Shown here: piece by piece, positions 2,562 to 33,613 of the stretch
Position numbering within the stretch: position 1 is the stretch's first letter
Layout of the letters: every line of letters starts with the position of its first letter
DNA from: Escherichia coli
GTDB taxonomy: Bacteria > Pseudomonadota > Gammaproteobacteria > Enterobacterales > Enterobacteriaceae
DNA length: 64,000 nt
Assembly: GCF_024223415.1 (NCBI RefSeq)
Contig: NZ_CP100500.1
Direction: 5' to 3' (one strand)
Notes under the pieces: model-generated
What the model saw: only the letters and a program-made list of their open reading frames with translations
Told to the model about the DNA's origin: nothing
Databases searched by the model: none
Program-made: the position numbers and the translations under genes

Positions 2562-5500
2562 TACCGATATGCTCCACTTAACCGACCACCATCACGGGCC
2601 TGCTGTTGCATAAAGTCCGCTGCCGCTTTTTTCCCAAGGTCATAAACCACCTTCAGGGCAGCCGGACCTATCTGCCCGTTCGTGCCATCGTTATTGATCT
2701 CGATGTTGTACTGCGGGGCAAACATCGCCATACCTGAACCACCAATATCCGCCACAACCCCCAGCTTACCGTCAGCACCACGACGCAGTGGCAGAATGGC
2801 TTCAGGTCCAGCTTCCCCCATCACACCCGCGCCTTTTGCAAAAGCAAAAAACGTCGGACGGTTAACCACCGTGCCACTGTAACGACTCAAATCAGCAGAC
2901 TGATAAATCCCCCCATTGGCATTCAGGGAAAGGCTGCTGAGATCAAATCCCAGTACACTGCCAATCCCTTTTATCGATTTCATCATGGTTGCCTGCGCCA
3001 GGATTTTCGCCATATCTGACAGCACCGAAGAGGTGAAGGATTTGAAGTTGAGTTTGCCGGTAGTGACAAAAGTTGCCAGGCCATTTCCCATGTTGCTGAA
3101 GGCTGATGAGAACACCTGTTCTGCTGTTCCTGCCGTATTGTCTGCATCCACGGTAAAATCCTGAAATGCACGCAGGACTCCGTTTTTCCAGTTACCCTGC
3201 ACAACTTCAAGCTGTTGCCAGTAACGGCGATTCTCATTCAGTTGTCGGTTCAGGCTCTCCGTCAGCGCCTGCTCGGCCTTTCTGTAGTCATCCGTGTTAT
3301 ATGTCCCTTTCTGCTCACTATCCCGCCTCAACTGCTCCAGCTGTTGCTGGTATTTCTGGCGAAGACTCAGTTGTACCTGATATCGCTGCCGCTGCTGATC
3401 ACCCATACCCACCGTGGCGATATCCAGGTCATGTTGCTGACGCTGAGCGCGCTCTTCTTCAGCCAGTTGACTGGTCAGCTGAATTGTTTTTTTCTTCAGA
3501 TCGTTGAGTGCCGTTTGTTTCTGAAGCTCCTGCTGTTTTACATCCAGCAGCGTCAGTGCCTGAATCAGTTCATCTTTACGGGCCAGCACACTCTTTTCAT
3601 CTGCCGTCAGTTTTTTCCCGTCCAGGTCGCTGATGCGCTGCTGCAGAGCCAGAAGCTGTTTATGCGCTTCTGTCATCCTGTCAGTGGCAATGCCTGCTGA
3701 CTGTCTGGCAGCAGCAATCTGCCCTTCCACCTGTGCCTGTTGCTGGCTGTACTGCAGCAATAACCGGGTGGCCTCATCATTACGGGTTTCGCGTGTTTTT
3801 TTCTTACCGGATGCCAGGGCTTTCTCGTAACGTTCATTTTCACGTTGTATCGCCGCATCCCTGACAGCCTGATCGGCGTACTGCATGGCATTAATACGCG
3901 CAATTTCACGCTGATGTCGTGCTGCTTCCGTTTCATTCATCCGGTTCAGTGCAGCATTTTCAGCATTACGGCGTTTCTGTTGCTCCTGATAATTCCGCTC
4001 TGCCTGCTCTTTTGCATCCTGCAAATCCTTCTGGCGTTTTTTCTCCTGAAGCTCGTTAAGACGCTGCTGATCGTATTCAACCTGAGAAGATGATGCCGTC
4101 CAGGGGAGTCTTTTCGCCCGCGATACTTTCTCCTGCAAAGTGGCAATCTGCGCATCCAGCGAATCTTCACGACCAATATTCATGGCCGCATCCCAGAACT
4201 GCTTCCACCAGTCAGACAAGGTTTGCAGCGTACTACCCAGCGCATTGAGGTTATTATCAATATCCGCAGTACGCCGACCGGTTTCCTCTGCCAGTGCAGA
4301 CATGGCTATCCGTGCCGCATCACTGGAGCGCCCCTGCTCTCCAAGGACGCGTATCTGCTCAAGCTGAGTGGCAGTAAGAAAATGCAGCTCATTGTCCAGA
4401 GCCTTCGCGGCATTTACAGGATCATCCTTCAGCCGCTTAAACTGATTTATGGTATCGCTGATCGACTGGCCAACCGATCGCTCCATCTGTGCGGCAGCTC
4501 TCGCCACCATACCGATATCGTTTCCACGAAATGCACCACTCCCCACCACCTGAGCCAGCGCACCGGCTGCAGCATGTTGCGTGATACCATTCCCGGAAAT
4601 AGCACGACTGAGCGTCCACAGCTGCCCGGCAGTGACTCCGGCATAATGCCCCGTCAGCGACAGCTGGCGGTTAAATTCTTCCCCCTCCTTCTGACCGTCA
4701 TACCAGGCTTTACCCAGACCATAGACGGCCGCGGTAATACCGCCAATAACCCCGCCCAGCATCATGCCTTTCGGTGACATCAGTGTGTCTATCCATCCGG
4801 CACGGTTAGCCAGCGTTATCCCGGATCCCCTCAGCGCCCCTAAATTGCCGCGGGCCAGTTCACCTATCAGAACGCCTATCTCCTGGCGGGCCGCTGCACT
4901 TTTCAGACCCAGCGAATGCGTGGCTTTTCCTGCCCGCTCCATTTTGCGGATATACACTTCTGCAGCACTGCTTACCCCCAGCTGGGCAGCCCTGGCACGA
5001 AGCAACTCAGAAGAAGAAAGATTCTGGCGGGTTGCCTGCTCTTTAAGCTGACGGATAAACGCCACTTTCTGTCGGGTAGCCTCTGCCTCAGCCTGCGTAA
5101 GAACACGGGTTTTCGCCGTAACCTCAGAAATCAGCGCCAGATAATCCTGCTGACCAATCCCGCCACTGTTTCTGGCCTGTCGGATCTGCTGCTGAATACG
5201 CTGTAACTCCTGCAACCCCGCACTGGCCTGTTTCACACTGTCAATCTGACGATAAAACGCGGCAGCCGCTTTATCCTGAGCCTCCGCCAGAGCCATGGCC
5301 TGCGCCTGTTCCTCGCGCATTTTCTGGCTCAGCGCCTCCATGCGCTGGCGGGTTTTCTCCACCTCGCGGGCCATGCGTTCATGAGCCTGTGCGTTCTTCT
5401 CCACCGTCTGCGCATGGACGGATGCGGCTGTTGCAGCCGAAGAAGCCGCCTGCGTTGTCTGCCGGGCGGCCTGAGTCTGACGCTCCATAAAACGCTGCAT

Positions 5501-8400: not shown

Positions 8401-8716
8401 TGAGTTTTACCGGCACTTCTTCTGCACTGGTTCCGGCATCTGCCCAGACAACCCCGACCAGCGGATCAGAGCCGCTGTTAGTCAGCTGAACTTTTCCGGA
8501 CTTCAGATAAACCTTCTTACCCGTTTTCATGTCATCCGTTTTCAGCTTAGGCAGCATAAACACACCTTCGGTCATACCGTCGCCTGTTTCACCCTGTGGA
8601 ATATCGGTCAGCGCCACCGCAAAAACATCACCCACCTGCACCAGATCTCCGCTGCTGATGGCTGCACTGGCAACAATCGCCACCGTTTTTCCTTCTTCTA
8701 CAAAATTCTTTGCCAT
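8393..8716 (-). CDS. Small head-associated protein (decoration/DUF2190-like), start uncertain
   Basis: ORF downstream of capsid gene; start set at MAKNFVEEGK; family assignment tentative. Confidence 0.4.
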   Translation of the reverse strand: MAKNFVEEGKTVAIVASAAISSGDLVQVGDVFAVALTDIPQGETGDGMTEGVFMLPKLKTDDMKTGKKVYLKSGKVQLTNSGSDPLVGVVWADAGTSAEEVPVKLNV

Positions 8717-8802
8717 AACTGTCTCCACACAGCCCCGTTCAGGGGCTGATTTCAGGTACAAAAAAAGCCCTTACGGGCCATCAGAGTTGTTGTCTGCGAT
8801 GT

Positions 8803-12501: not shown

Positions 12502-14594
12502 CCTCCGGAAGTCAGCCAGGGGTTAACATCGTCAGTTACTGTTTTCTTCCGTTTTTGTTTTTTAACAGGCGTGGATACCGGTTCCGGTGAGGATGACGGT
12601 TCGGTACTGTCCTGGACACACTCCAGCCAGGTTTCCCGGCTCGCCCACTCCGGTGCATCCGGCCAGCGGATCTTTTCGTATCCATGCAGAATGACCAGAG
12701 CCTCGGCATACACCATCAGGTCAAAAGCTTCGTTGGCACCGCGACCCGGCTTACTCCATTTCCCGTCACTGCTCCGCTCTTCATACGTCAGTTCGTCGTA
12801 AAACCAGCTCCCCAGCCAGTCAGGGAAATGCACATAGCCGGGACCTGGCGAGTCACGCCATAACGCGTTATTCACCCGGTCTTTCAGTGCATCCGTCTGA
12901 AGAAGCCAGAGCGGCACATCACCTGCGGCCTGCGCCCGTCGGCCCGTTCGTCCGGTGTTATCAGGGAATGTACGGGTGATCAGTTTTGCGCGCCGGATGC
13001 TGTCGCCCTTAAACAGGTAAATACGTTTACCAAGGCCATCACGACGGCAACGACGCCAGAATTTATAGGCATTATCAGTGACCCCGTCTTCACCGCCGGA
13101 GTCCACCGCCATTGCCATCAGTCGCATTTGTTGAGAAGGATCGGAGGCCAGCGGCCAGCTTTTATGAAAAACATCCGTCAGCAGGACATCCCAGTCTTCC
13201 GGATAGCTGGCCGGATCAATTCGCTGGCTCTCCCCGTCGCTGTCACCGCGCAATGACTGCGTGATGTTGTAACGATCAATAATCCAGCGTTCGCCACGGC
13301 TGCCATAGCCCGTTACCTGAACCACAAAACGGCGATGACGTCCCGCCTGCACATCCACTGTCGCCACAAGGAAATTAACGCCATCCGGCACACTGCGGGA
13401 AGGAACTGGCTCTGCCCGCTGCTCAAGCAGTTCACTTTTTCGTTGCTCCATGCTGGCGCGGGGAAGATAAGGTAATCCCCAGTCGGTATTGATAACCGTC
13501 TTGAGTGTTTCTTCACTTCCGGTTGTCTCGTATTCCTGTTCTGCAGTAAGCAGTTTGTAAACGAGTTGCGAGAGTGTCTGGTAAGCAGCTGCCGGACCCT
13601 CCATCCAGAATGACGCAATACGTGAGCGTCGGGGATCACCATAACGACTGCCATCCGCATTGATGGATTCACCATCCCGCAACCAGACCCCACGTCCGTT
13701 CAGCTCACGTTTGTGTTCAGGCATAATCCGTCCTGAACAGGAAGGACACTGAATATAAGCCGCCTCACTTGCCAGCACGGGATCGGCAATATCACGGAAA
13801 CCAGCAACCACATCGCCGCAGGGCTGAAAATACTCACCACAGTGTGGACAGGGCCAGTACCAGCGACGGCGATCACCACGGTTATAGAGCGACAGGATCC
13901 CCGTGGTTGGTGGAGCCTCATGCGGTGAAGTCCGTCGCCATTTCACATCCTTCACATCCCTGCCGGGGGAACTCTCCACCAACGTCATACCGCTGGACAT
14001 AAATGTGGTGGTACGTTTTGAGGCAAGAGAGAAGGCATCCCCCTCGCCATCAATATCTTCCGGAAAACGGTCATAATCCGTCAGCGCGACGCATTTATAA
14101 TCTGATGAGGACATGATATTGACTGACGGCCAGCCGATTTTCAGGTAGTTGCCAGCAAGGAATGTTCTGTCATAAACGTTGTTGTCATTTTTGTTCGGAC
14201 TCAGGCGACTGACCACTTCCGGGCTGACGCGAAACGTTCTGGCGAGTCGTTTTTTGGAGTGTTCGCGGGCTTTTTCCTCCGTCATCTGAATGATCAGCAT
14301 ATCAGCAGGATCGCAAATCACGTTGTAAATCACCCAGCCGTCAATCAGGCCGATAGTCTTGCCGGTTCGTGCCGGGCCAACAAATATCACTGCGTCGTAT
14401 TCACGCGAGGCCAGGCAGTTCATCGGCTCAATAACATACGGTGCCACCAGCGGATCCCACGGGACTGAGTTCCCGGCCCCCATGGGCACCCGCATATACT
14501 GAGCAACGGCATCAGCAACCCGCATTCGTCTCGGTGCGCGAAGGATATAACCTGAATCGGTTCGTGCTGCCTTTGCGGTTTCCTGATTCAGCAT
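12492..14594 (-). CDS. Terminase large subunit (lambda gpA family)
   Basis: 700 aa; N-terminal ATPase region with FVGPARTGKT Walker A; lambda A-like. Confidence 0.9.
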   Translation of the reverse strand: MLNQETAKAARTDSGYILRAPRRMRVADAVAQYMRVPMGAGNSVPWDPLVAPYVIEPMNCLASREYDAVIFVGPARTGKTIGLIDGWVIYNVICDPADMLIIQMTEEKAREHSKKRLARTFRVSPEVVSRLSPNKNDNNVYDRTFLAGNYLKIGWPSVNIMSSSDYKCVALTDYDRFPEDIDGEGDAFSLASKRTTTFMSSGMTLVESSPGRDVKDVKWRRTSPHEAPPTTGILSLYNRGDRRRWYWPCPHCGEYFQPCGDVVAGFRDIADPVLASEAAYIQCPSCSGRIMPEHKRELNGRGVWLRDGESINADGSRYGDPRRSRIASFWMEGPAAAYQTLSQLVYKLLTAEQEYETTGSEETLKTVINTDWGLPYLPRASMEQRKSELLEQRAEPVPSRSVPDGVNFLVATVDVQAGRHRRFVVQVTGYGSRGERWIIDRYNITQSLRGDSDGESQRIDPASYPEDWDVLLTDVFHKSWPLASDPSQQMRLMAMAVDSGGEDGVTDNAYKFWRRCRRDGLGKRIYLFKGDSIRRAKLITRTFPDNTGRTGRRAQAAGDVPLWLLQTDALKDRVNNALWRDSPGPGYVHFPDWLGSWFYDELTYEERSSDGKWSKPGRGANEAFDLMVYAEALVILHGYEKIRWPDAPEWASRETWLECVQDSTEPSSSPEPVSTPVKKQKRKKTVTDDVNPWLTSGGWL

Positions 14595-15088
14595 TACTCC
14601 TCCTGCTGTAATTCCTCCTCATCATCCGCACCTGCTTCAGTCACCCGCAGGGCTATCTGATCGCGCAGATCATCAATAATGGACTGAACACGGCTCACAG
14701 CGGCAGGCTGCAGACCGCAGTCACGTTCAAGAATATCCGGTAATGTCTCCAGCACCTGCACGACCGCTTTTGCCCAGATGGCAAACTCCCGTCTGACATC
14801 ACTGGCCGGAATGAGTTGTGCCGTTTCCTGTTCGAACTTAAGACGCTCACGTTCAGACTGATACCAGGCTTTGCGCTCATGCGCGTCCATTTCGCCTTCT
14901 GCAACCGGCGGTGGTAATGCCAGAAATGCCGACACAATATCAACCACCCGATAAAGCTTGAGGTTGCTTTCATGCCCCCCTGCAACGGGTAGATTTTGCA
15001 GCCTTGCCGCAGCAGTCTGGCGATGTACACCTGACAGTGCCGCCAGTTGACTGATATTAAGCGTCAGATTTTTTAACTCTCGATCCAT
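14594..15088 (-). CDS. Terminase small subunit (Nu1-like)
   Basis: 164 aa; N-terminal HTH LNISQLAALSGVHRQTAAARL; acidic C-terminus; precedes terminase large subunit. Confidence 0.75.
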   Translation of the reverse strand: MDRELKNLTLNISQLAALSGVHRQTAAARLQNLPVAGGHESNLKLYRVVDIVSAFLALPPPVAEGEMDAHERKAWYQSERERLKFEQETAQLIPASDVRREFAIWAKAVVQVLETLPDILERDCGLQPAAVSRVQSIIDDLRDQIALRVTEAGADDEEELQQEE

Positions 15089-15409
15089 ACCCGCTCCAGA
15101 ATGTTTTAAACATGCATCTTGCGAACAACTTTAGGCAAACGGTGTTAGTGATGAACAAAAAACAATCAAAATCGACACTACAAAAATAAAACCACTGTAA
15201 TATCAATCTATTACAGTAGTGGTGATGACGAATGAAATTTCAAAAACTAGCCTTTTTCCGCGATGCTCCCGCCCCGTGCCAGCCTCCCCCATTAGGAGGA
15301 CCCACATTTCTTATCAGGTATTCAAAACGCCCACCTCAATGAGGTCGGATCAGATTGATGTGAGAGAACAAATCATGCAAACTATCTAAGCTCATGGTAA
15401 GAAGTAGCA

Positions 15410-15835
15410 GTGACAAGAGGATATTTCCTGATGGAGCAGGCAAATATTTTTCAAGAGATATTCGAACACGTTAGAAGTAATTTATACTTCCCATGGTTTT
15501 ACTCCGAATTAAAACGCCATAATATTGCGCATTATATTTATTATCTGGCTACTGATAATATAAGACTAATTACTCATGATGATAATGTTTTATTAGTTCG
15601 AGGCAGTAGAGGACTTGTGAAAGTTAGCACATCAAAAAAACCAGAGTTAATTAAAGAAGCAGCCAGGAATCTTATATCAGGTAAATCTACATTTCACCAA
15701 TATCGTCTCACTTTAGCAAAAGCAGGTGTTTATCGCTGGATTACAGATATAGATAAAAACATACGGTTTTACTATTCGTTTGATCACGATCTTTTGTACA
15801 TGGAAGATGTTGAAAATAACAGACCATTAATATAG
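15410..15835 (+). CDS. Hypothetical protein (AT-rich orphan cargo gene)
   Basis: 141 aa ORF on opposite strand to the late operon in an AT-rich island between Rz and terminase; Tyr/Asn/Ile-rich; no recognisable family. Confidence 0.4.
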   Translation: MTRGYFLMEQANIFQEIFEHVRSNLYFPWFYSELKRHNIAHYIYYLATDNIRLITHDDNVLLVRGSRGLVKVSTSKKPELIKEAARNLISGKSTFHQYRLTLAKAGVYRWITDIDKNIRFYYSFDHDLLYMEDVENNRPLI

Positions 15836-16152
15836 GAATTAATTAAATCAGCAGTCCGGTTTCATACACCTCTGTACCGGACTAGCTGCATGAAGAGCAA
15901 ACCCGCGAAGCATAAAAGCGGTAAACCCAGGTGTGTATCGTTTTTTATTATTCCCACACACTCGTGCTCCCCGTCGGACTACACTCATGGTTAACGAAGG
16001 AATACAGCGACGATACGGCGCACAGAAATAAATCAGGCATCTATTGACCTCATAAAAACGATGCATTGCCTTGCTATGAGTAATGGTGTCAATTAAAGCT
16101 TTGGCTCTCTCTAGCCCCGGCGAATCTTCAGCGGATTATCCTTGGCCGGTTT

Positions 16153-16617
16153 TTATCTGAGGCATTGCTCTCGAATGTATAGCTGTGCCCCTTCAAGTTG
16201 TTTTTGCATTATTATCAGTCGCTCTCTGAGGGTGAAATAATCCCGTTCAGCGGTGTCTGCCAGTCGGGGGGCGGCTGCATTACCCACGCCGGAGGCGGCG
16301 GTGGCTTCACGCACGGTCTGACAGACTGCTCTGATGCGCAACCGACGACGACCAGCGGCAATATCATCACGAAGAGCATCATTTTCAGCTTTCGCATCAG
16401 CTAATTCCTTCAGGTATTTTGCATCGAGTGCAGTAATATCACGCTGGCGCTGCTGCATGTCAGTAATGGCTGCATTCGCCTGGCTGAGTTTTGTCTTCGC
16501 ATCATCTCTCTGCTCTTTGTAGATGATGGCATTATCGCGGTAATGGGCTATTGCCAGCAACAGCGCACCACTGACCACCAGTAGAATAACAATCACCGCA
16601 TACAGAACCCGTTTCAT
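16153..16617 (-). CDS. Rz i-spanin
   Basis: From MKRVLYAVIVILLVVSG (N-terminal TM) with coiled-coil periplasmic region; Rz1 ORF embedded in +1 frame. Confidence 0.85.
   Translation of the reverse strand: MKRVLYAVIVILLVVSGALLLAIAHYRDNAIIYKEQRDDAKTKLSQANAAITDMQQRQRDITALDAKYLKELADAKAENDALRDDIAAGRRRLRIRAVCQTVREATAASGVGNAAAPRLADTAERDYFTLRERLIIMQKQLEGAQLYIREQCLR
16215..16397 (-). CDS. Rz1 o-spanin lipoprotein (embedded in Rz)
   Basis: 60 aa; lipobox LVVVGC and Pro-rich body PPPPPAWVMQPPPDWQTP; fully nested within Rz in another frame. Confidence 0.8.
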   Translation of the reverse strand: MRKLKMMLFVMILPLVVVGCASEQSVRPCVKPPPPPAWVMQPPPDWQTPLNGIISPSESD

Positions 16618-16914
16618 TTCACCACCAGCGTATCTGAGCAATGAAATAACCGGAGGCCATAATCGCAAACACCAGCCAGAAAAGAATGAATTTCCAGGTG
16701 GATAATTTTTCAGCCATAGTTCGAATCTCCCGAATCAGTTTGCTAAAATCAAACACACTTTCTCCTTTGGCTTTTCCGGAGTCAGGAAACACAAAAAACC
16801 CGACTGTTCGCGCAATCGGGGGTCTGCTCTTATTCACTACTTCAATTCATTTATGACTAATATCGTGTTATCCACCCGCGTTGGCCAACGTCATTTTTCA
16901 GAGAAATATTCTGC

Positions 16915-17448
16915 TTATCTGTCGATCCCCCAGCACACTAACGCGCTCTCCTGATCACGACGAATAACCTGACCGTAACAGTTATTTGAACGAATGCGGC
17001 AATCACGCCCCCTGTCCTTAATCCACCAGCGAATCGCCTCGCATGCACCTTTACGATCACCAGCATTCAGCCGTTTATAAAACGTCGACGGAAAACACTT
17101 ACCGGGGCCAATGTTATAGGGACAAAATGACGCGATACCCGCTTTTTGTGGTTCGGTCAGTGGTACTTTAATATTGCGCTCCACCCATGCCAGAGCCTTA
17201 TCACGCTCAATAGCGTTAACCTGGTCGCATTTTTCCTTCGACAGTTTCATATTGGGAAAAACGGGTTTTCCATCCACCACTGTGGCACCCCGACAGATGG
17301 TCCATATGCCGGAACCATCACGGTATGCCATTGTGTGGTTACCTTCTTTTTCGTCCAGAAACTGGTCAAGTATCTGAGGAGCAGATGCACCAGCACCAAT
17401 CAGCGCCAGAACGGCAGCCGACAGGCCGTATTTGACTTTTACGTTCAT
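16915..17448 (-). CDS. SAR endolysin (phage lysozyme)
   Basis: 177 aa; N-terminal signal-anchor-like hydrophobic stretch YGLSAAVLALIGAGASA followed by lysozyme-like region (…GSGIWTICRG…). Confidence 0.8.
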   Translation of the reverse strand: MNVKVKYGLSAAVLALIGAGASAPQILDQFLDEKEGNHTMAYRDGSGIWTICRGATVVDGKPVFPNMKLSKEKCDQVNAIERDKALAWVERNIKVPLTEPQKAGIASFCPYNIGPGKCFPSTFYKRLNAGDRKGACEAIRWWIKDRGRDCRIRSNNCYGQVIRRDQESALVCWGIDR

Positions 17449-17553
17449 GGATATTTATCAGGATTTATCGATTTCTGAACCCAGGATATGTTTATCTGTC
17501 CCAACCTGTTGAATCAGGCGGAGAACAGGTAAATACAATCAAGAGGATTATTT

Positions 17554-17826
17554 ATGGACAATAACACCATTTCTCTTCAGGAGTTGCTCGACTGCATTTC
17601 CAGGCTTCGGGATGATGTTAATGCCCTTACTGTCGCATTTTCATATCTGGCATTGTCAATTCCCAGGGAACAAATGCAACCAACACTGGCATCGCTCCAG
17701 CTTGAATCACACAGCCCAAAATGGTCCCAGGAACAACAAAATTCCTTCAAGTGGCTGGTGGCATTACTGGAAGATAAATATGCTGTTAAAATTAAAATTC
17801 CGGCGGAGTCTTCAGAGAACCAGTAA
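17554..17826 (+). CDS. Hypothetical protein (inserted in lysis cassette)
   Basis: 90 aa ORF with AAGAGG RBS about 6 nt upstream and promoter-like TTGAAT/TAAATA; convergent with the 114-aa ORF. Confidence 0.4.
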   Translation: MDNNTISLQELLDCISRLRDDVNALTVAFSYLALSIPREQMQPTLASLQLESHSPKWSQEQQNSFKWLVALLEDKYAVKIKIPAESSENQ

Positions 17827-18136
17827 TTTTTCCCGGTAGCTTTACTTTGTAAGTTATCCACACATTCTGCGCCTCTAAAATTATGGGGTGCTTTTCTGGC
17901 GACAGCTCATTCCCTTCACATAACCCGGCAGCAACATCCAGGAAGACCTGTCTGATTCTCCTTCTGGCTGCTGCCTCATAAAACTCCAGTGCAGCACCTT
18001 CAACACGATCCATAGTGATATCAAGGTCAAAAATCTCACCGTCAAAGCGTTCTTTGTCTTGTAAGGCTAAAGTTACCGCAACTTTATTCTCAAAATTACG
18101 GACTCCTTTCACAACCAGTTCGTAGACTTGAGTCAT
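17792..18136 (-). CDS. Hypothetical protein between holin and endolysin
   Basis: 114 aa ORF starting 5 nt after the holin stop on the same strand; no TM segment, no recognisable family. Confidence 0.45.
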   Translation of the reverse strand: MTQVYELVVKGVRNFENKVAVTLALQDKERFDGEIFDLDITMDRVEGAALEFYEAAARRRIRQVFLDVAAGLCEGNELSPEKHPIILEAQNVWITYKVKLPGKITGSLKTPPEF

Positions 18137-18140
18137 TGGA

Positions 18141-18356
18141 TTACTCTCCTCTCTCAGCCTTACGCCTGTCTTCTTTAATCTTGAAATAAAGGTTAGTCAG
18201 ATACGTCAGCATGCCAAATACCAGACTACCCAATACACCTATTGCCGCCCACTGTGAGGGCGTGACTTTATCGAGCAACTGTAAAAACCAGTAGCCAGCA
18301 CTGCCTGCAGAGGTGCCGTAGGCGATGCCCGTTGTTAACTTATCCATGGATTTCAT
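18141..18356 (-). CDS. Holin/pinholin (S21-like, class II) with dual-start motif
   Basis: 71 aa from [28 protein letters not shown]...; two TM segments; the M-K-S-M dual start suggests holin/antiholin forms. Confidence 0.8.
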
Positions 18357-18445
18357 AGCCTCACCTCCGCAGATAACGGATGGTGTACACGGTTTGGTTC
18401 GAAGAAGGAAAAAAGTTACATTAACGTAAGGCCCGAACATCTATT

Positions 18446-18478
18446 CAAAAAGAAAAACGCCAGCAATTATTCTGGCGT
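18446..18478 (-). terminator. Rho-independent terminator downstream of AraC gene, upstream of holin
   Basis: Minus-strand hairpin ACGCCAG-loop-CTGGCGT followed by a T-run. Confidence 0.5.
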
Positions 18479-18539
18479 AGCTGAAAGCATCATACAATTA
18501 TCAAATACGAAAATTACAAAATCATTAAAACGCATCACG

Positions 18540-19280
18540 TTACATCATGTCTTTTTCTAAAAAAAATCTTGATGAATATTGATGGGGAGGAACACCAAAA
18601 TATCTTCTGAAAACACTTACAAAATATGACGTGTTTTCATAACCGCATATCTCAGCAACTTTTCCAACAGAATATAAATTGTAGCTTAATAACCTTTCCG
18701 CCATCACCATTCGCTCTTCAAGAATTAACTTACTAAATGATAAGCCTTCGTGCTTTAATTTTCTTTTTAACAGGCTTTCACTCAGATACAGTCTTGAAGA
18801 TATATCACAAAGTCTCCATGCTGCAGATATATCCGTGTGAATAATAGCCTTAACTTTACTTCCTAAACTATTAAGACATCCAAATAAAAAACTTTGCACT
18901 GTTTTCTCTGAAGATAAGATAGCAAGACATGCAAGTGATATTTGATTTCTAACAAAATCCACAGTTCTGCCATCAAAATTCAAGCATGCAATCAAATTCT
19001 TTAACAATGAAAAATCTTCACATTCCACCATCAAGTATGCCGGATAAAACCTTCTTACAGAAAAAGGTGAGAGTGTGTTGTTTTTAAAGAAATCATTAAC
19101 TGTTTTCTCTTCAACATCTACGATCATTACATGATCTATATTTGATGAAAAAAAATCTTTTAAATTGTAATCAATGAGAACAGCACTTCCTTTTTTAAAC
19201 AAAATATCTTCTTTACCAATTCGGACATCAAACGAGTTCAACACCAAAATGATAGAACATATGTATGGCATATTATCCAC
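18540..19280 (-). CDS. AraC-family transcriptional regulator
   Basis: 246 aa; C-terminal AraC HTH (...VGKVAEICGYENTSYFVSVFRRYFGVPPHQY); AT-rich. Confidence 0.8.
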   Translation of the reverse strand: MDNMPYICSIILVLNSFDVRIGKEDILFKKGSAVLIDYNLKDFFSSNIDHVMIVDVEEKTVNDFFKNNTLSPFSVRRFYPAYLMVECEDFSLLKNLIACLNFDGRTVDFVRNQISLACLAILSSEKTVQSFLFGCLNSLGSKVKAIIHTDISAAWRLCDISSRLYLSESLLKRKLKHEGLSFSKLILEERMVMAERLLSYNLYSVGKVAEICGYENTSYFVSVFRRYFGVPPHQYSSRFFLEKDMM

Positions 19281-19622
19281 CTGATATCATTGGGGTTACA
19301 CCAGGTAAGTATAGGTGGAAAATCAATATTCGCCAGTTCAACAATAAGGAAAATCTCATTGCATCACAAGTATAAAATTATGTATTTAACTCACAAAGAC
19401 AAATTATTAAACCAATCTGTTATATTATATATAGCTGCGTGGAATCATAATATTATATATTTTGACTGGCATGTTTACCAACTTTAAGTTGCATCTCAAT
19501 GGTTTCTTCAGCGTAAACAGAGTTTTTATACAAACTGACACTCTGGGTATCATAGTGTAGTTTTTACGATTGTAAATATCCTGCATGCAGGAACTCATCC
19601 TTTTGGATGATATCGCATACAA

Positions 19623-20582
19623 TTAATTTACCATCAGTCTTAGAGCCAGTTCGTCCGGATAGGGATCGAAGTAATTCTGTGTAAGCAAGTAGTCATTAGG
19701 ATACTCACCCAGATAATGCTTCAGCAGAGTCAACGGCGCAAGAAGAGGTAATGTGCCAGAACGATAGTTAAGTATAACCTCGCTCAACTCTTTACGCTGG
19801 CGTGTACTTAAGTAGTTACTAAAATACCCCTGTATATGCATCAGCACATTCGTGTGATTTTTACGTGATGCAGGTTTTCTGAGAATCGCCATCAGCTTAT
19901 CACGATACACCTCAAAGTATGATTCAAGGTCCGCCCACTCGTGTATTGCAGCCACAAATGGTCCCATATCTTTATAGCCTGCCTGACTATGCGCCAACAA
20001 CTGAAGCTTATAACGACTATGAAAAGCTAATAACTCTCTTCTTGATAATTTCTCCTTGTAAAGGTGATTGAGCTCATGCAAAGCAAAAACTCTTTCAACA
20101 AAATTCTCACGAAGCACTGGATCATGTAATCGCCCATCCTCTTCAACCGGTAGCCAGGAAAACTTTTCCATCAAAGTGCTCGTAAATAGTCCCACTCCAT
20201 CTTTACGACCTCGATTACCATTTTCATCATAGACACGCACGCGCTCCATGCCACAGCTGGGAGATTTAGCACAAACCACAAACCCCGATACATCCTTTAA
20301 TTTGTCCATATAAGAACGACTAAACTCTGTCATTCTCTCTGTCACATCCTCATTCTGGTCGTGGCTGAAACACATCCGTATATTTCCTTGCGTCGAGCGC
20401 ACAAGACGTAGAGCAGGACGCGGAACTGGCAGCCCTATAGCCATTTCCGGACATACTGGTCTGAATGTTACCCATTCCACTAATTTGTCCATTAAAAAGT
20501 CAGCTCTTTTGTGACCACCATCAAAACGAACAGCAGAACCGGCCAAACAACCGCTGATTCCAATCACAGGTTTTTTTATCAT
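19623..20582 (-). CDS. DUF523 (TudS/YbbK-like) - DUF1722 (YbgA-like) fusion protein
   Basis: 319 aa; N-terminal GISGCLAG Cys-containing motif typical of DUF523, C-terminal YbgA-like region; assignment from motif recall. Confidence 0.6.
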   Translation of the reverse strand: MIKKPVIGISGCLAGSAVRFDGGHKRADFLMDKLVEWVTFRPVCPEMAIGLPVPRPALRLVRSTQGNIRMCFSHDQNEDVTERMTEFSRSYMDKLKDVSGFVVCAKSPSCGMERVRVYDENGNRGRKDGVGLFTSTLMEKFSWLPVEEDGRLHDPVLRENFVERVFALHELNHLYKEKLSRRELLAFHSRYKLQLLAHSQAGYKDMGPFVAAIHEWADLESYFEVYRDKLMAILRKPASRKNHTNVLMHIQGYFSNYLSTRQRKELSEVILNYRSGTLPLLAPLTLLKHYLGEYPNDYLLTQNYFDPYPDELALRLMVN

Positions 20583-20774
20583 ATCCTCCCCCTTGACTAA
20601 TTCATTAACACATAAACTGTGTAGTGCACGGAATAAATTGCCTTTCTGGCGTCATCACTGACAATTTTTCTGTTATGGACTATTCCTAATATAGTATGAA
20701 AGTTCTTTAAGTGATCGGTCGTAATCATCTATCTTTCATACTTACTCTCAACTATCAAAAGTACAGGATTTATT

Positions 20775-21299
20775 ATGAAGTTATGGCCTGTGTTGACTGG
20801 CATTGCACTCTCTTTCACTCTTATAGCATGTAAGGCCCCGACACCACCTAAAGGTGTGCAGCCGATTACAAATTTTGACGCCAACCGCTACCTCGGAAAA
20901 TGGTATGAAATAGCTCGCCTCGAGAACCGGTTCGAACGTGGTCTGGAACAGGTCAGCGCTACTTATGGAAAACGGAACGACGGAGGGATTCGTGTACTTA
21001 ACCGTGGATACGATCCAACGAAAAATAAATGGAGCGAGAGCGAAGGTAAAGCATACTTTACTGGAGATACTAAAACTGCAGCGTTGAAGGTTTCGTTTTT
21101 TGGCCCCTTCTATGGTGGCTATAATGTAATCAAACTGGATGATGAGTATAAGTATGCTCTTGTCAGTGGTCCGAACAGAGAATACCTATGGATTCTGGCA
21201 AGGACCCCAACTATTCCAGATAAAGTAAAAGCAGACTATGTGCGAACCGCTCAAAAGTTGGGATTCAATGTCAATGAATTATTATGGGTTAAACAATAA
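20775..21299 (+). CDS. blc: Outer-membrane lipocalin Blc homologue (lipoprotein)
   Basis: 174 aa; lipobox LIAC; GKWYEIARLENRFERGLEQVSATY and KVSFFGPFYGGYNVI closely resemble E. coli Blc as recalled. Confidence 0.85.
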   Translation: MKLWPVLTGIALSFTLIACKAPTPPKGVQPITNFDANRYLGKWYEIARLENRFERGLEQVSATYGKRNDGGIRVLNRGYDPTKNKWSESEGKAYFTGDTKTAALKVSFFGPFYGGYNVIKLDDEYKYALVSGPNREYLWILARTPTIPDKVKADYVRTAQKLGFNVNELLWVKQ

Positions 21300-21454: not shown

Positions 21455-21847
21455 TTATTTCGGACAATCAGCATCCATCTCCAATCGGAGATCCAACACC
21501 ATCAGCATGCCCTCCACTACGCCCTCAGCTTTCTGGAGCATCCTGCCAACCCAACAATCAGATCGCCCATGCTTACGTGCAAGCGCCATAAAAGTCATGC
21601 CGCCGACATAATAGTCCACCAATAAATCATGCAAATCGCTGTTGTTTTTTTTCAGGCGAGCCATACATCCACAAATGATCATCGCGTCATCGTCACAACA
21701 TTGCGGGCGAGATTTTACTTTTGAAGGAATTAATCCCTTAAAACCGGCGGCAATGGACGACCAGGTCACATCTTCATGATTATTAGCCGCCCACGCTCCC
21801 CAACGCTCAAGAACCATCTGAATATCACGCATCAACTTTCTCCACAA
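21455..21847 (-). CDS. Q: Late antiterminator Q (phage 21/82-type)
   Basis: 130 aa with Cys-rich zinc-binding region ([16 protein letters not shown]...CWVGRML); followed by terminator; start may be MRDIQ at 21832. Confidence 0.8.
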
Positions 21848-33536: not shown

Positions 33537-33613
33537 TGGCGCGCCCTGCAGGATTCGAACCTGCGGCCCACGACTTAGAAGGTCGTTGCTCTATCCAACT
33601 GAGCTAAGGGCGC
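33537..33613 (-). tRNA. argU: tRNA-Arg (anticodon UCU)
   Basis: 77-nt cloverleaf on minus strand, anticodon loop CTTCTAAGT, T-arm GGTTCGAATCC, 3' CCA; immediately downstream of int. Confidence 0.9.

Follow-up and report, generated by a model that had tools for sequence, protein, structure and literature searches.

Why should a phage lysis cassette hold a terminator-like hairpin and a tiny reading frame between its endolysin gene R and its spanin gene Rz? The question arises from a 64,000-nucleotide (nt) stretch of Escherichia coli contig NZ_CP100500.1 (assembly GCF_024223415.1), hereafter the window, in which the late region of a lambdoid prophage lies on the minus strand with a lysis cassette of the phage-21/H-19B type. 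The original prediction had placed between the two genes a hairpin followed by six T residues and a possible membrane peptide of 32 amino acids (aa), had called a terminator at such a site unexpected, and had suggested that it might mark an attenuator or an insertion scar. We compared the site with about 180 loci representing 39 distinct variants (35 intact and 4 with 5′ deletions), of which 16 diverged loci formed a first round; all cassette coordinates below are positions in the window, where the lysis genes are read from the minus strand. By this comparison the hairpin, the leader behind it and the small open reading frame (ORF) are one conserved unit that moves as a whole among different gene contexts. 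We lean towards regarding the hairpin and the ORF as the two halves of a portable, moron-like late-gene cassette that was inserted at the R/Rz joint and is kept silent until antiterminated transcription reaches it.

A conserved gene for a predicted small membrane protein abuts Rz

The small ORF ends with a TGA at 16619–16621, followed by a single base (16618) and the Rz ATG at 16615–16617, the junction reading TGGTGGTGAAATG. The 32-aa frame originally described (16619–16717) is exact in its coordinates, including the one-base gap to Rz, and its start, which is Met14 of a longer frame, is invariant and has its own GGAG. The frame nevertheless stays open upstream to a GTG at 16756 preceded by AAGGAG, and our best model is 45 aa long. 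This 45-aa product matches phrog_6632, a family in the function category ‘unknown’, from end to end (E = 5.2e-27, residues 1–45 on profile positions 1–45 of 45), and RefSeq carries a 45-aa hypothetical protein, WP_000459345.1 (O145:H28). Searches of Pfam and NCBIfam gave no match, and no holin family in Pfam, NCBIfam or PHROGs includes it; a Hok-like identity was also rejected, there being neither similarity nor a Pfam match. A profile search of 1.84 billion representatives assigned 38 clusters at 50% identity to the family, whose consensus is xDFSKLIRELRxMxEKLxxW(K/R)F, then a hydrophobic stretch, frequently with RWW at the end. Within the window, a six-frame profile search found this copy only.

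The reading frame evolves as a protein. Against the Salmonella copy (62% amino-acid identity), the proportion of synonymous differences (pS) is 0.67, at which synonymous sites are saturated, and that of non-synonymous differences (pN) is 0.25, with a ratio of non-synonymous to synonymous rates (dN/dS) of 0.13–0.18, while in the two other frames pS and pN are about equal, as expected under neutrality. Codon comparison among relatives therefore identifies the small ORF as a genuine conserved gene under protein-level selection from Met14 onward, and the conservation that the original prediction had left to be checked is borne out by the 38 clusters, the phrog_6632 match and the purifying selection.

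Predictions support its proposed membrane character as well. Hydropathy marks residues 22–42 as membrane-spanning, and an AlphaFold model of the 45-aa form (mean predicted local distance difference test score of 80.8) has an amphipathic helix at residues 4–17 and a second helix at 20–44, from which we predict a single transmembrane helix. With 45 or 32 aa and one such helix, the product fits the description of a small hydrophobic toxin ORF. It also fits that of a lysis-cassette protein with one transmembrane domain in its place between R and Rz here, other family members lying outside lysis cassettes.

The hairpin, the leader and the ORF travel together

On the minus strand the hairpin reads CCCGATTG-CGCGAA-CAGTCGGG, an 8-bp stem (5 GC pairs, one G.U) closed by a 6-nt loop, with a core free energy of −11.2 kcal/mol; TTTTTTGTGT follows the stem directly, the six T residues being 16793–16798, with GTGT after them. 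The hairpin and T6 first described at about 16785–16815 are thus real, and their coordinates were a few bases off (16799–16820 for the stem-loop). A GC-rich stem-loop with an adjacent U-rich tract on the transcribed strand has the sequence of an intrinsic terminator; its position is not that of the end of a transcription unit, for R and Rz flank it within the late operon and, in phage SEN34, the baseplate spike and wedge genes do so. When 16 diverged copies were aligned by structure, 91% of cells were paired and 9 of 14 pairs had changed on both sides, a value that none of 500 shuffles reached, with slid controls paired at 38–62%. Across 32 variants the 9 nt on the 3′ side of the stem hold on average 6.25 T and the upstream side on average 6.1 A, and the hairpin is symmetric (A-tract plus U-tract) in 31 of the 32. 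The window copy is the exception, having 3 A in the 9 nt upstream of the stem, so that its hairpin is essentially unidirectional, toward the sense transcript.

Each of the 16 first-round loci has an A-tract/(G)CCCCG...CGGGG(C)/U-tract hairpin ahead of the first start codon. In the full set it is present in 35 of 39 variants, which are all of the intact ones, only the 5′-deleted copies being without it, and across intact variants its distance to the start stays within 23–41 nt (mostly 30–41). Diverged members were taken from two phages, the isolated SEN34 and one of Pseudomonas, from Salmonella, Citrobacter, Edwardsiella and Pantoea, and from metagenomes. The genes beside them vary greatly: lysozyme/Rz, Rha/ORF11CD3, PrlF-YhaV, DUF5675, ParE/RelB modules, DUF2513/DUF2213 head genes, genes for tail tip, NlpC/P60 and Bro-N, and those for baseplate spike and wedge. 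At three loci (L093, L095 and L098) the upstream gene has a terminator of its own and the cassette hairpin is a second one, 15–25 nt later. Stand-alone copies have their own downstream terminator, which is absent in other contexts, and the same pair of baseplate genes occurs with the cassette (L124) and without it (L140). An insertion scar, as first suggested, does not describe a hairpin, leader and ORF that form one conserved travelling unit. Two narrower ideas were rejected along the way: that the ORF is specific to Rz, copies being found also in head, tail, baseplate and toxin–antitoxin regions, and that the C-terminal RWW is merely the ribosome site of Rz, RWW being retained ahead of unrelated genes.

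Pseudomonas phage YMC11/02/R656 carries the full cassette, with hairpin, TTTCC motif, mini-hairpin and dual start, as gp058 (locus L190, 1920–2147); this is a GC-rich siphovirus, yet the AT-rich GAT TTT AGC AAG is kept at codons 2–5.

The spacer between the R stop codon and the hairpin belongs to the R–Rz junction and not to the cassette: it recurs in Sakai Sp12 and Sp4, where the downstream sequence differs, and is missing from cassette copies in other gene contexts. A 197-nt spacer region folds no better than shuffles (z = 0.19) and offers no alternative, antiterminator-type structure, and neither a promoter scan at a 9/12 threshold nor one at 8/12 found a sense promoter in spacer or leader. 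With no alternative structure and no upstream promoter, we see no basis for the suggested attenuator. Rfam gave no match at E <= 1 in 14000–20000, and at gathering score (the whole window plus loci L085, L089, L090 and L108) it returned nothing at any R–Rz junction, including no IsrK (RF01394). One of the conserved blocks of the spacer, GGTGGATAACAC (about 16862–16873, minus strand), is shared by E. coli and Salmonella copies, and its reverse complement TTATCCACC agrees with 8 of the 9 bases of a DnaA box.

Two candidate start codons and a constrained 5′ region

Ahead of the GTG, AAGGAG or AAGGGAG occupies the position of the first Shine-Dalgarno in nearly all copies, and the leader can form a 5-bp mini-hairpin whose 3′ arm covers the 5′ half of that motif. 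The mini-hairpin was spotted by eye and tested afterwards: in alignment A8 (columns 15–19 against 27–31) 88% of cells were paired and 12 cells showed changes on both sides, compared with 0 of 500 shuffles and with 23–55% in slid controls. RNAalifold, applied to the leader plus the first 18 codons, reported no consensus structure.

The GGAG of the second start (16727–16730, 9 nt upstream of the ATG) is present in 34 of 39 variants. In an unfiltered set of 16 representatives less than 90% identical to one another, Met14 never varies, nor does the GAG of codon 10, and 81% have a codon 9 with G in last place (the rare CGG or AGG, or AAG), so building GGAG before Met14. In the same representatives the third base of codon 4 is T in 94%, against 50% conservation of its residue, A_C persists at codon 5 in 100% despite a Ser/Ile exchange, and codon 12 is the rare CGA in 88%. 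Codons 15–34 have a pooled pS of 0.77 against a pN of 0.32, the pattern of a protein-coding sequence. Codons 2–13 differ, as detailed below, and their codon pattern indicates constraint at the nucleotide level, which fits an internal ribosome site for the second start and fits an element on the opposite strand as well. Both starts and both Shine-Dalgarno motifs are conserved across relatives, and dual initiation is predicted from the sequence.

Two independent natural deletions (L140 compared with the SEN34-like L124/L189, and L137–L139) share the junction ...CTGAT/A..., the slash marking the joint, and have lost the hairpin, the leader and codons 1–7 while keeping the short form with its GGAG and Met14. 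In L137–L139 a different 49-aa transmembrane ORF replaces the lost upstream part.

On the plus strand, antisense to codons 3–6, lies a candidate extended −10 element, TGnTAnnnT, which 33 of the 35 intact variants have at the same codons, with a weak −35 17 nt upstream; the 9/12 promoter scan did not flag it. An RNA started there, at about 16757, would run through the antisense of the first Shine-Dalgarno to the hairpin (about 16757–16830, some 70–80 nt), and folding predictions for such RNAs leave UUCUCC unpaired at the 5′ end, followed by a small stem and a U-tailed terminator. We therefore count as a prediction a cis-antisense RNA that is driven by a promoter within codons 3–6 and ends at the hairpin, which would act bidirectionally in relatives.

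Proposed role and its alternatives

Read from 5′ to 3′, the cassette would comprise a terminator-type hairpin, a leader of about 35 nt whose mini-hairpin occludes a Shine-Dalgarno, a GTG start (45 aa), 13 codons that bear the second Shine-Dalgarno, the Met14 start (32 aa), a transmembrane helix running to RWW, and a stop abutting the next gene. The setting is late: the Q antiterminator gene lies upstream (21455–21847), and no promoter-like site occurs between hairpin and ORF. In a lysogen the terminator would halt ordinary RNA polymerase arriving from upstream morons or spurious promoters, insulating the cassette, and here also Rz and everything downstream, from polymerase without Q modification; the mini-hairpin, by occluding the first ribosome site, would damp expression further. 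After induction, Q-modified polymerase would read through the hairpin, ribosomes would use one start or both on the late mRNA to make a small inner-membrane protein with its N terminus inside, and those finishing at the TGA could re-initiate on Rz one base later, so that Rz is probably translationally coupled to the small ORF. Given the double lock, the late timing and the single transmembrane helix, we infer that the peptide is a membrane-active accessory protein, holin-like or toxin-like, that would be harmful if made early. A terminator inside a lysis cassette is also less unexpected than first claimed, since a Q antiterminator is encoded upstream and such terminators had already been noted in P22-like phages; the terminator features and the late-operon position themselves stand.

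Several observations weigh against this insulated late-gene cassette. Judged from the window by itself, such a hairpin is no more than chance would give (2 terminator-like sites in 2.8 kb, compared with 2.4 ± 1.4 in shuffles), and we judge it non-random because the comparison with relatives, not the window count, supports it. The mini-hairpin of the window copy is weakened to 3 of 5 pairs. Codons 2–13, with a pS of 0.30 close to a pN of 0.24, are without protein-type selection, and the case for translation of the long form is therefore limited to its conserved start, Shine-Dalgarno and open frame. Coupling to the next gene is not universal: in SEN34 a 15-nt gap precedes the next gene, which has its own AAGGAGG. 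The hairpins of SEN34 and of the head and tail contexts stand before essential genes whose operons are not known to be antiterminated, and so cannot be tight sense terminators there; in SEN34 the role of the hairpin may be partial, or may lie chiefly on the other strand. The many contexts outside lysis cassettes argue against a dedicated lysis role. The searchable literature yielded no Term-seq or other 3′-end, transcript or protein data for any member or carrier, and nothing specific on this ORF, on an R–Rz terminator or on a related type I system.

In another reading, which we entertain tentatively, the hairpin would chiefly terminate the cis-antisense RNA, the whole working much like a type I toxin–antitoxin locus. 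Starting at the first start codon with a single-stranded anti-Shine-Dalgarno 5′ end (UUCUCC), the RNA would keep the long form from being translated, or would provoke cleavage, until late transcripts outnumber it. The insulated cassette could hold on this reading too, with a different main role for the hairpin. Beyond the fixed position of TGnTAnnnT, the invariant bases are those that a −10 needs and the variable ones its ‘n’ positions (codons 4 and 5), the rare CGA at codon 12 supplies the T of the weak −35, and pS in codons 2–13 is low and close to pN whereas it is high in the transmembrane part. A Pseudomonas phage retains GAT TTT AGC AAG despite being GC-rich, nearly all variants have a symmetric hairpin, the predicted RNAs fold as free anti-Shine-Dalgarno, small stem and terminator, and the natural deletions take out exactly this region; prophage hokW-sokW, which aids lysis, is a precedent (PMC8621323). 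Against this stand the poor −35 (3 of 6 positions) of a site that the promoter scan passed over, early codons whose AT-richness may instead be selected for open mRNA at the start sites, the lack of a toxin promoter between hairpin and ORF, unlike in classical type I systems, the degenerate antisense U-tract of the window copy (3 A in 9 nt) and the absence of an Rfam family. Nor did any of the 63 EcOnc peaks of Sakai from Hfq cross-linking and analysis of cDNA (CRAC), all of which were inspected, fall at the R–Rz junctions of Sp4, Sp12 or Sp15, which is weak evidence because Sakai has no intact cassette. In a wider form of the idea, which we likewise regard as possible though doubtful, the loci would be an unrecognised family spread by horizontal transfer in Shiga toxin (Stx) phages, Salmonella, Pantoea, Edwardsiella, Citrobacter and Pseudomonas phages, in which a cis-antisense small RNA (sRNA) and the Shine-Dalgarno-occluding stem set whether a membrane-active peptide is made and in which form, 45 or 32 aa.

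The remaining explanations dispense with one half of the unit or with both. If extra DNA had split R from Rz, the small ORF could be no more than an upstream ORF that brings ribosomes to Rz, its peptide being without function; a stop 1 nt before the Rz ATG, the overlap of R with Rz in canonical cassettes, three unrelated small ORFs that end just ahead of Rz (phrog_6632, phrog_4493 and phrog_4906) and the small ORF that acts as a coupler in IsrK-orf45-anrP (PMC4825925) all speak for it. We nevertheless find it unlikely, as the transmembrane part is under protein-level purifying selection, the family stands ahead of many genes other than Rz and in stand-alone copies with their own downstream terminator, and RWW persists at the C terminus in copies followed by genes other than Rz. 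Still less credible is an sRNA, or an RNA derived from the 3′ untranslated region of the endolysin, that ends at the hairpin (IsrK-like or anti-sRNA-like) with the ORF secondary. Late prophage regions are rich in sRNAs (PMC4104026), the spacer has conserved blocks, and IsrK offers the layout of an sRNA terminator followed by a small dual-start ORF (PMC4825925); the spacer, however, has no promoter-like site, no Rfam match at E <= 1 and no folding beyond that of shuffles, no EcOnc peak lies at the R–Rz junctions, and elsewhere the hairpin follows another terminator by just 15–25 nt, which leaves no room for an sRNA body. The AgvB/AsxR/Pas-type anti-sRNAs were ruled out as an explanation, being located upstream of the holin. 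Least plausible of all is an ordinary terminator of the upstream unit next to a chance ORF, or the scar of a lost insertion: the terminator-like count of the window is not above that of shuffles and the R–Rz junction is a known mosaic joint (Ant in Sp12 and Sp15), but the hairpin covaries, its distance to the ORF is steady in unrelated contexts, and the ORF, which has a PHROG family, evolves under purifying selection.

Distribution and the R–Rz joint

The 400 nt from the end of R to the start of Rz are collinear, at 82–84% identity, in 1230 of 5426 complete E. coli genomes, and the stretch is also found in H-19B and many Stx1 and Stx2 phages. It is extra DNA, since in K-12 Qin (whose R belongs to the same family) and in DLP12 R and Rz overlap by 4 nt, without a spacer. 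The joint accepts other cargo too. In Sakai Sp12 and Sp15 it holds an antirepressor gene (Ant) and, after it, a different 48-aa transmembrane ORF of phrog_4906 that abuts Rz (ECs_5732, L090 Sp12 5112–5258; ECs_5741, L108 Sp15 2749–2895). Sakai Sp4 is a recombinant in which hairpin and leader survive, the first ORF is cut short (MGREVLSL*) and there follows a 37-aa transmembrane ORF, ECs_1094 (L089 Sp4 8615–8728; phrog_4493), which ends in IRWW and abuts Rz.

The H-19B record (L003, AF034975.3, 101–673) annotates an Rz of 190 aa because the coding sequence was carried on upstream, through the small ORF in a different frame. This extension accounts for a spanin survey calling the H-19B Rz ‘significantly longer’; translation of Rz probably begins at the ATG that follows the stop of the small ORF by 1 nt, as in the window. 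The closest relative (L001, NZ_CP136025.1, 1736–2964) is 100% identical over 16560–16960 and carries an IS2 beside the Rz start, between Rz and the small-ORF region (near window 16560–16620); the window is without IS2.

The prophage late region around the site is laid out in Table 1. The endolysin is predicted to be of the signal-anchor-release type from its Gly/Ala-rich N-terminal segment and from PMC8136144.

Table 1 Positions of the cassette elements and of the neighbouring late genes in the window
Feature	Position	Strand	Remarks
Q antiterminator	21455–21847		PF06530; upstream of lysis cassette
Lipocalin gene	20775–21299	+	Moron between Q and holin
YbgA/2-thiouracil-desulfurase-like gene	19623–20582	−	Moron between Q and holin
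AraC-type regulator	18540–19280	−	Moron between Q and holin
S21-type holin	18141–18356	−	PF04971
YdfR/DUF1327 gene	17792–18136	−	Between holin and endolysin
Endolysin R, 177 aa, rrrQ-like	16915–17448	−	PF00959 Phage_lysozyme 2.7e-23; phrog_7 endolysin; RefSeq ‘lysozyme / rrrQ’
Non-coding spacer, R stop codon to hairpin	16821–16914	−	Conserved blocks CTGAAAAATGA and GGTGGATAACAC flank a highly variable stretch (38 distinct relatives aligned)
GC-rich stem-loop	16799–16820	−	5′ boundary of cassette
U-tract TTTTTTGTGTTTCC	16785–16798	−	T6 first, then family-wide TTTC(C) motif
5-bp mini-hairpin	16765–16781	−	3′ arm overlaps 5′ half of Shine-Dalgarno 1
Shine-Dalgarno 1, AAGGAG	16762–16767	−	5 nt before GTG 16756
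Small ORF, long form, 45 aa	16619–16756	−	MFDFSKLIREIRTMAEKLSTWKFILFWLVFAIMASGYFIAQIRWW (GTG read as Met) plus stop
Small ORF, short form, 32 aa	16619–16717	−	MAEKLSTWKF...IRWW, from ATG 16715–16717 (Met14)
Candidate antisense extended −10, TGCTAAAAT (TGnTAnnnT)	16741–16749	+	Antisense of codons 3–6
Weak −35, TCGAAT	16721–16726	+	17-nt spacer to −10; 3/6 match
Rz (i-spanin)	16153–16617	−	PF03245 Phage_lysis 1.9e-48; phrog_13; downstream neighbour of cassette
Rz1	16215–16397	−	Embedded within Rz
DUF1398 gene	15410–15835	+	Convergent with Rz; packaging genes beyond

The three cargo genes between Q and the holin (18540–21299) occupy the interval that is the site of stx and nanS-p in Stx phages. 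A 90-aa ORF of phrog_2411 (category unknown function; 17554–17826, plus strand) lies between the YdfR/DUF1327 gene and the endolysin and overlaps the 3′ end of YdfR by 35 nt, an antisense-oriented moron within the lysis cassette. Just upstream of the holin a second terminator-like hairpin (18457–18478, minus strand), ACGCCAG-AATAATTG-CTGGCGT plus TTTTCTTTTT, is likewise inside the Q-dependent late operon. Directly after the DUF1398 gene, an inverted repeat CAGTCCGGT...ACCGGACT at 15848–15890, facing Rz, is probably the terminator of that gene. Elsewhere in the window Rfam detects a tRNA gene at 33540–33613 (minus strand).

Relation to known systems and implications

By sequence, the cassette is a member of none of the systems with which we compared it, though it shares parts with each. 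Morons are reportedly, in the definition of Juhala and Hendrix, extra genes with their own promoter upstream and their own terminator downstream. The cassette resembles them as small, portable, extra DNA at an insertion hot spot between genes that abut in related phages; it differs in that the search for a promoter came up empty, the terminator precedes the gene, and the design suggests silence in the lysogen and not lysogenic expression. Terminators within late operons have been noted in the P22-like phage L, their role left unassigned and partial termination or the stopping of non-antiterminated transcripts suggested (bioRxiv 10.1101/2020.10.05.325894). The hairpin shares with such lambdoid late-operon terminators its GC-rich stem, its U-tract and an operon downstream of a Q gene, and differs from them in being tied to a downstream small gene at a steady distance and in its symmetry in relatives.

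Another close layout is that of IsrK-orf45-anrP of Gifsy-1, where a terminator is followed within tens of nt by an ORF of about 45 codons with two in-frame starts, whose ribosome-binding site is sequestered in a hairpin, whose stop abuts the next gene and whose translation drives that gene (PMC4825925). Layout is shared, as is a part of the ORF in which nucleotides are better conserved than amino acids; the cassette, however, has no Rfam IsrK match, no upstream promoter and no sRNA body, and the C-terminal two thirds of its ORF are a transmembrane helix conserved at the protein level.

Dual-start holin/antiholin genes are known from lambda (S105/S107, with the sdi stem-loop) and phage 21 (S21 68/71). 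Like them, the cassette encodes a small membrane protein in a lysis cassette, with two in-frame starts, an RNA stem by the first ribosome site and a longer form that adds positively charged N-terminal residues. Unlike them, its starts are 13 codons apart and not 2–3, it has no holin homology and a single transmembrane helix, and many of its members lie outside lysis cassettes. With type I toxin–antitoxin systems (hok/sok, ibs/sib, hokW-sokW) it has in common a hydrophobic peptide of less than 60 aa, a leader that occludes the ribosome-binding site, a prophage location and a predicted cis-antisense RNA over that site; it differs in having no toxin promoter (about 35 nt being available), no relation by sequence or Rfam, and an antisense RNA that is only predicted.

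About one-fifth of complete E. coli genomes, together with the Stx1 phage H-19B and many Stx1 and Stx2 phages, thus have the cassette in their lysis genes, mostly left unannotated in phage records; its presence there explains the 300-bp R–Rz gap and the overlong Rz annotation of H-19B. If it is just an insulated accessory gene, it would be a clean ‘terminator-first’ moron, silent in the lysogen. If the antisense reading is true, it would be a timing device of type-I-toxin-like or holin/antiholin-like kind for any late operon, placed here ahead of the spanin genes. Should the peptide prove membrane-active, or the antisense RNA real, the cassette would be a new portable small-protein/RNA unit, and would add a regulated component to lysis by pinholin and signal-anchor-release endolysin, and thus to the timing of Shiga-toxin release.

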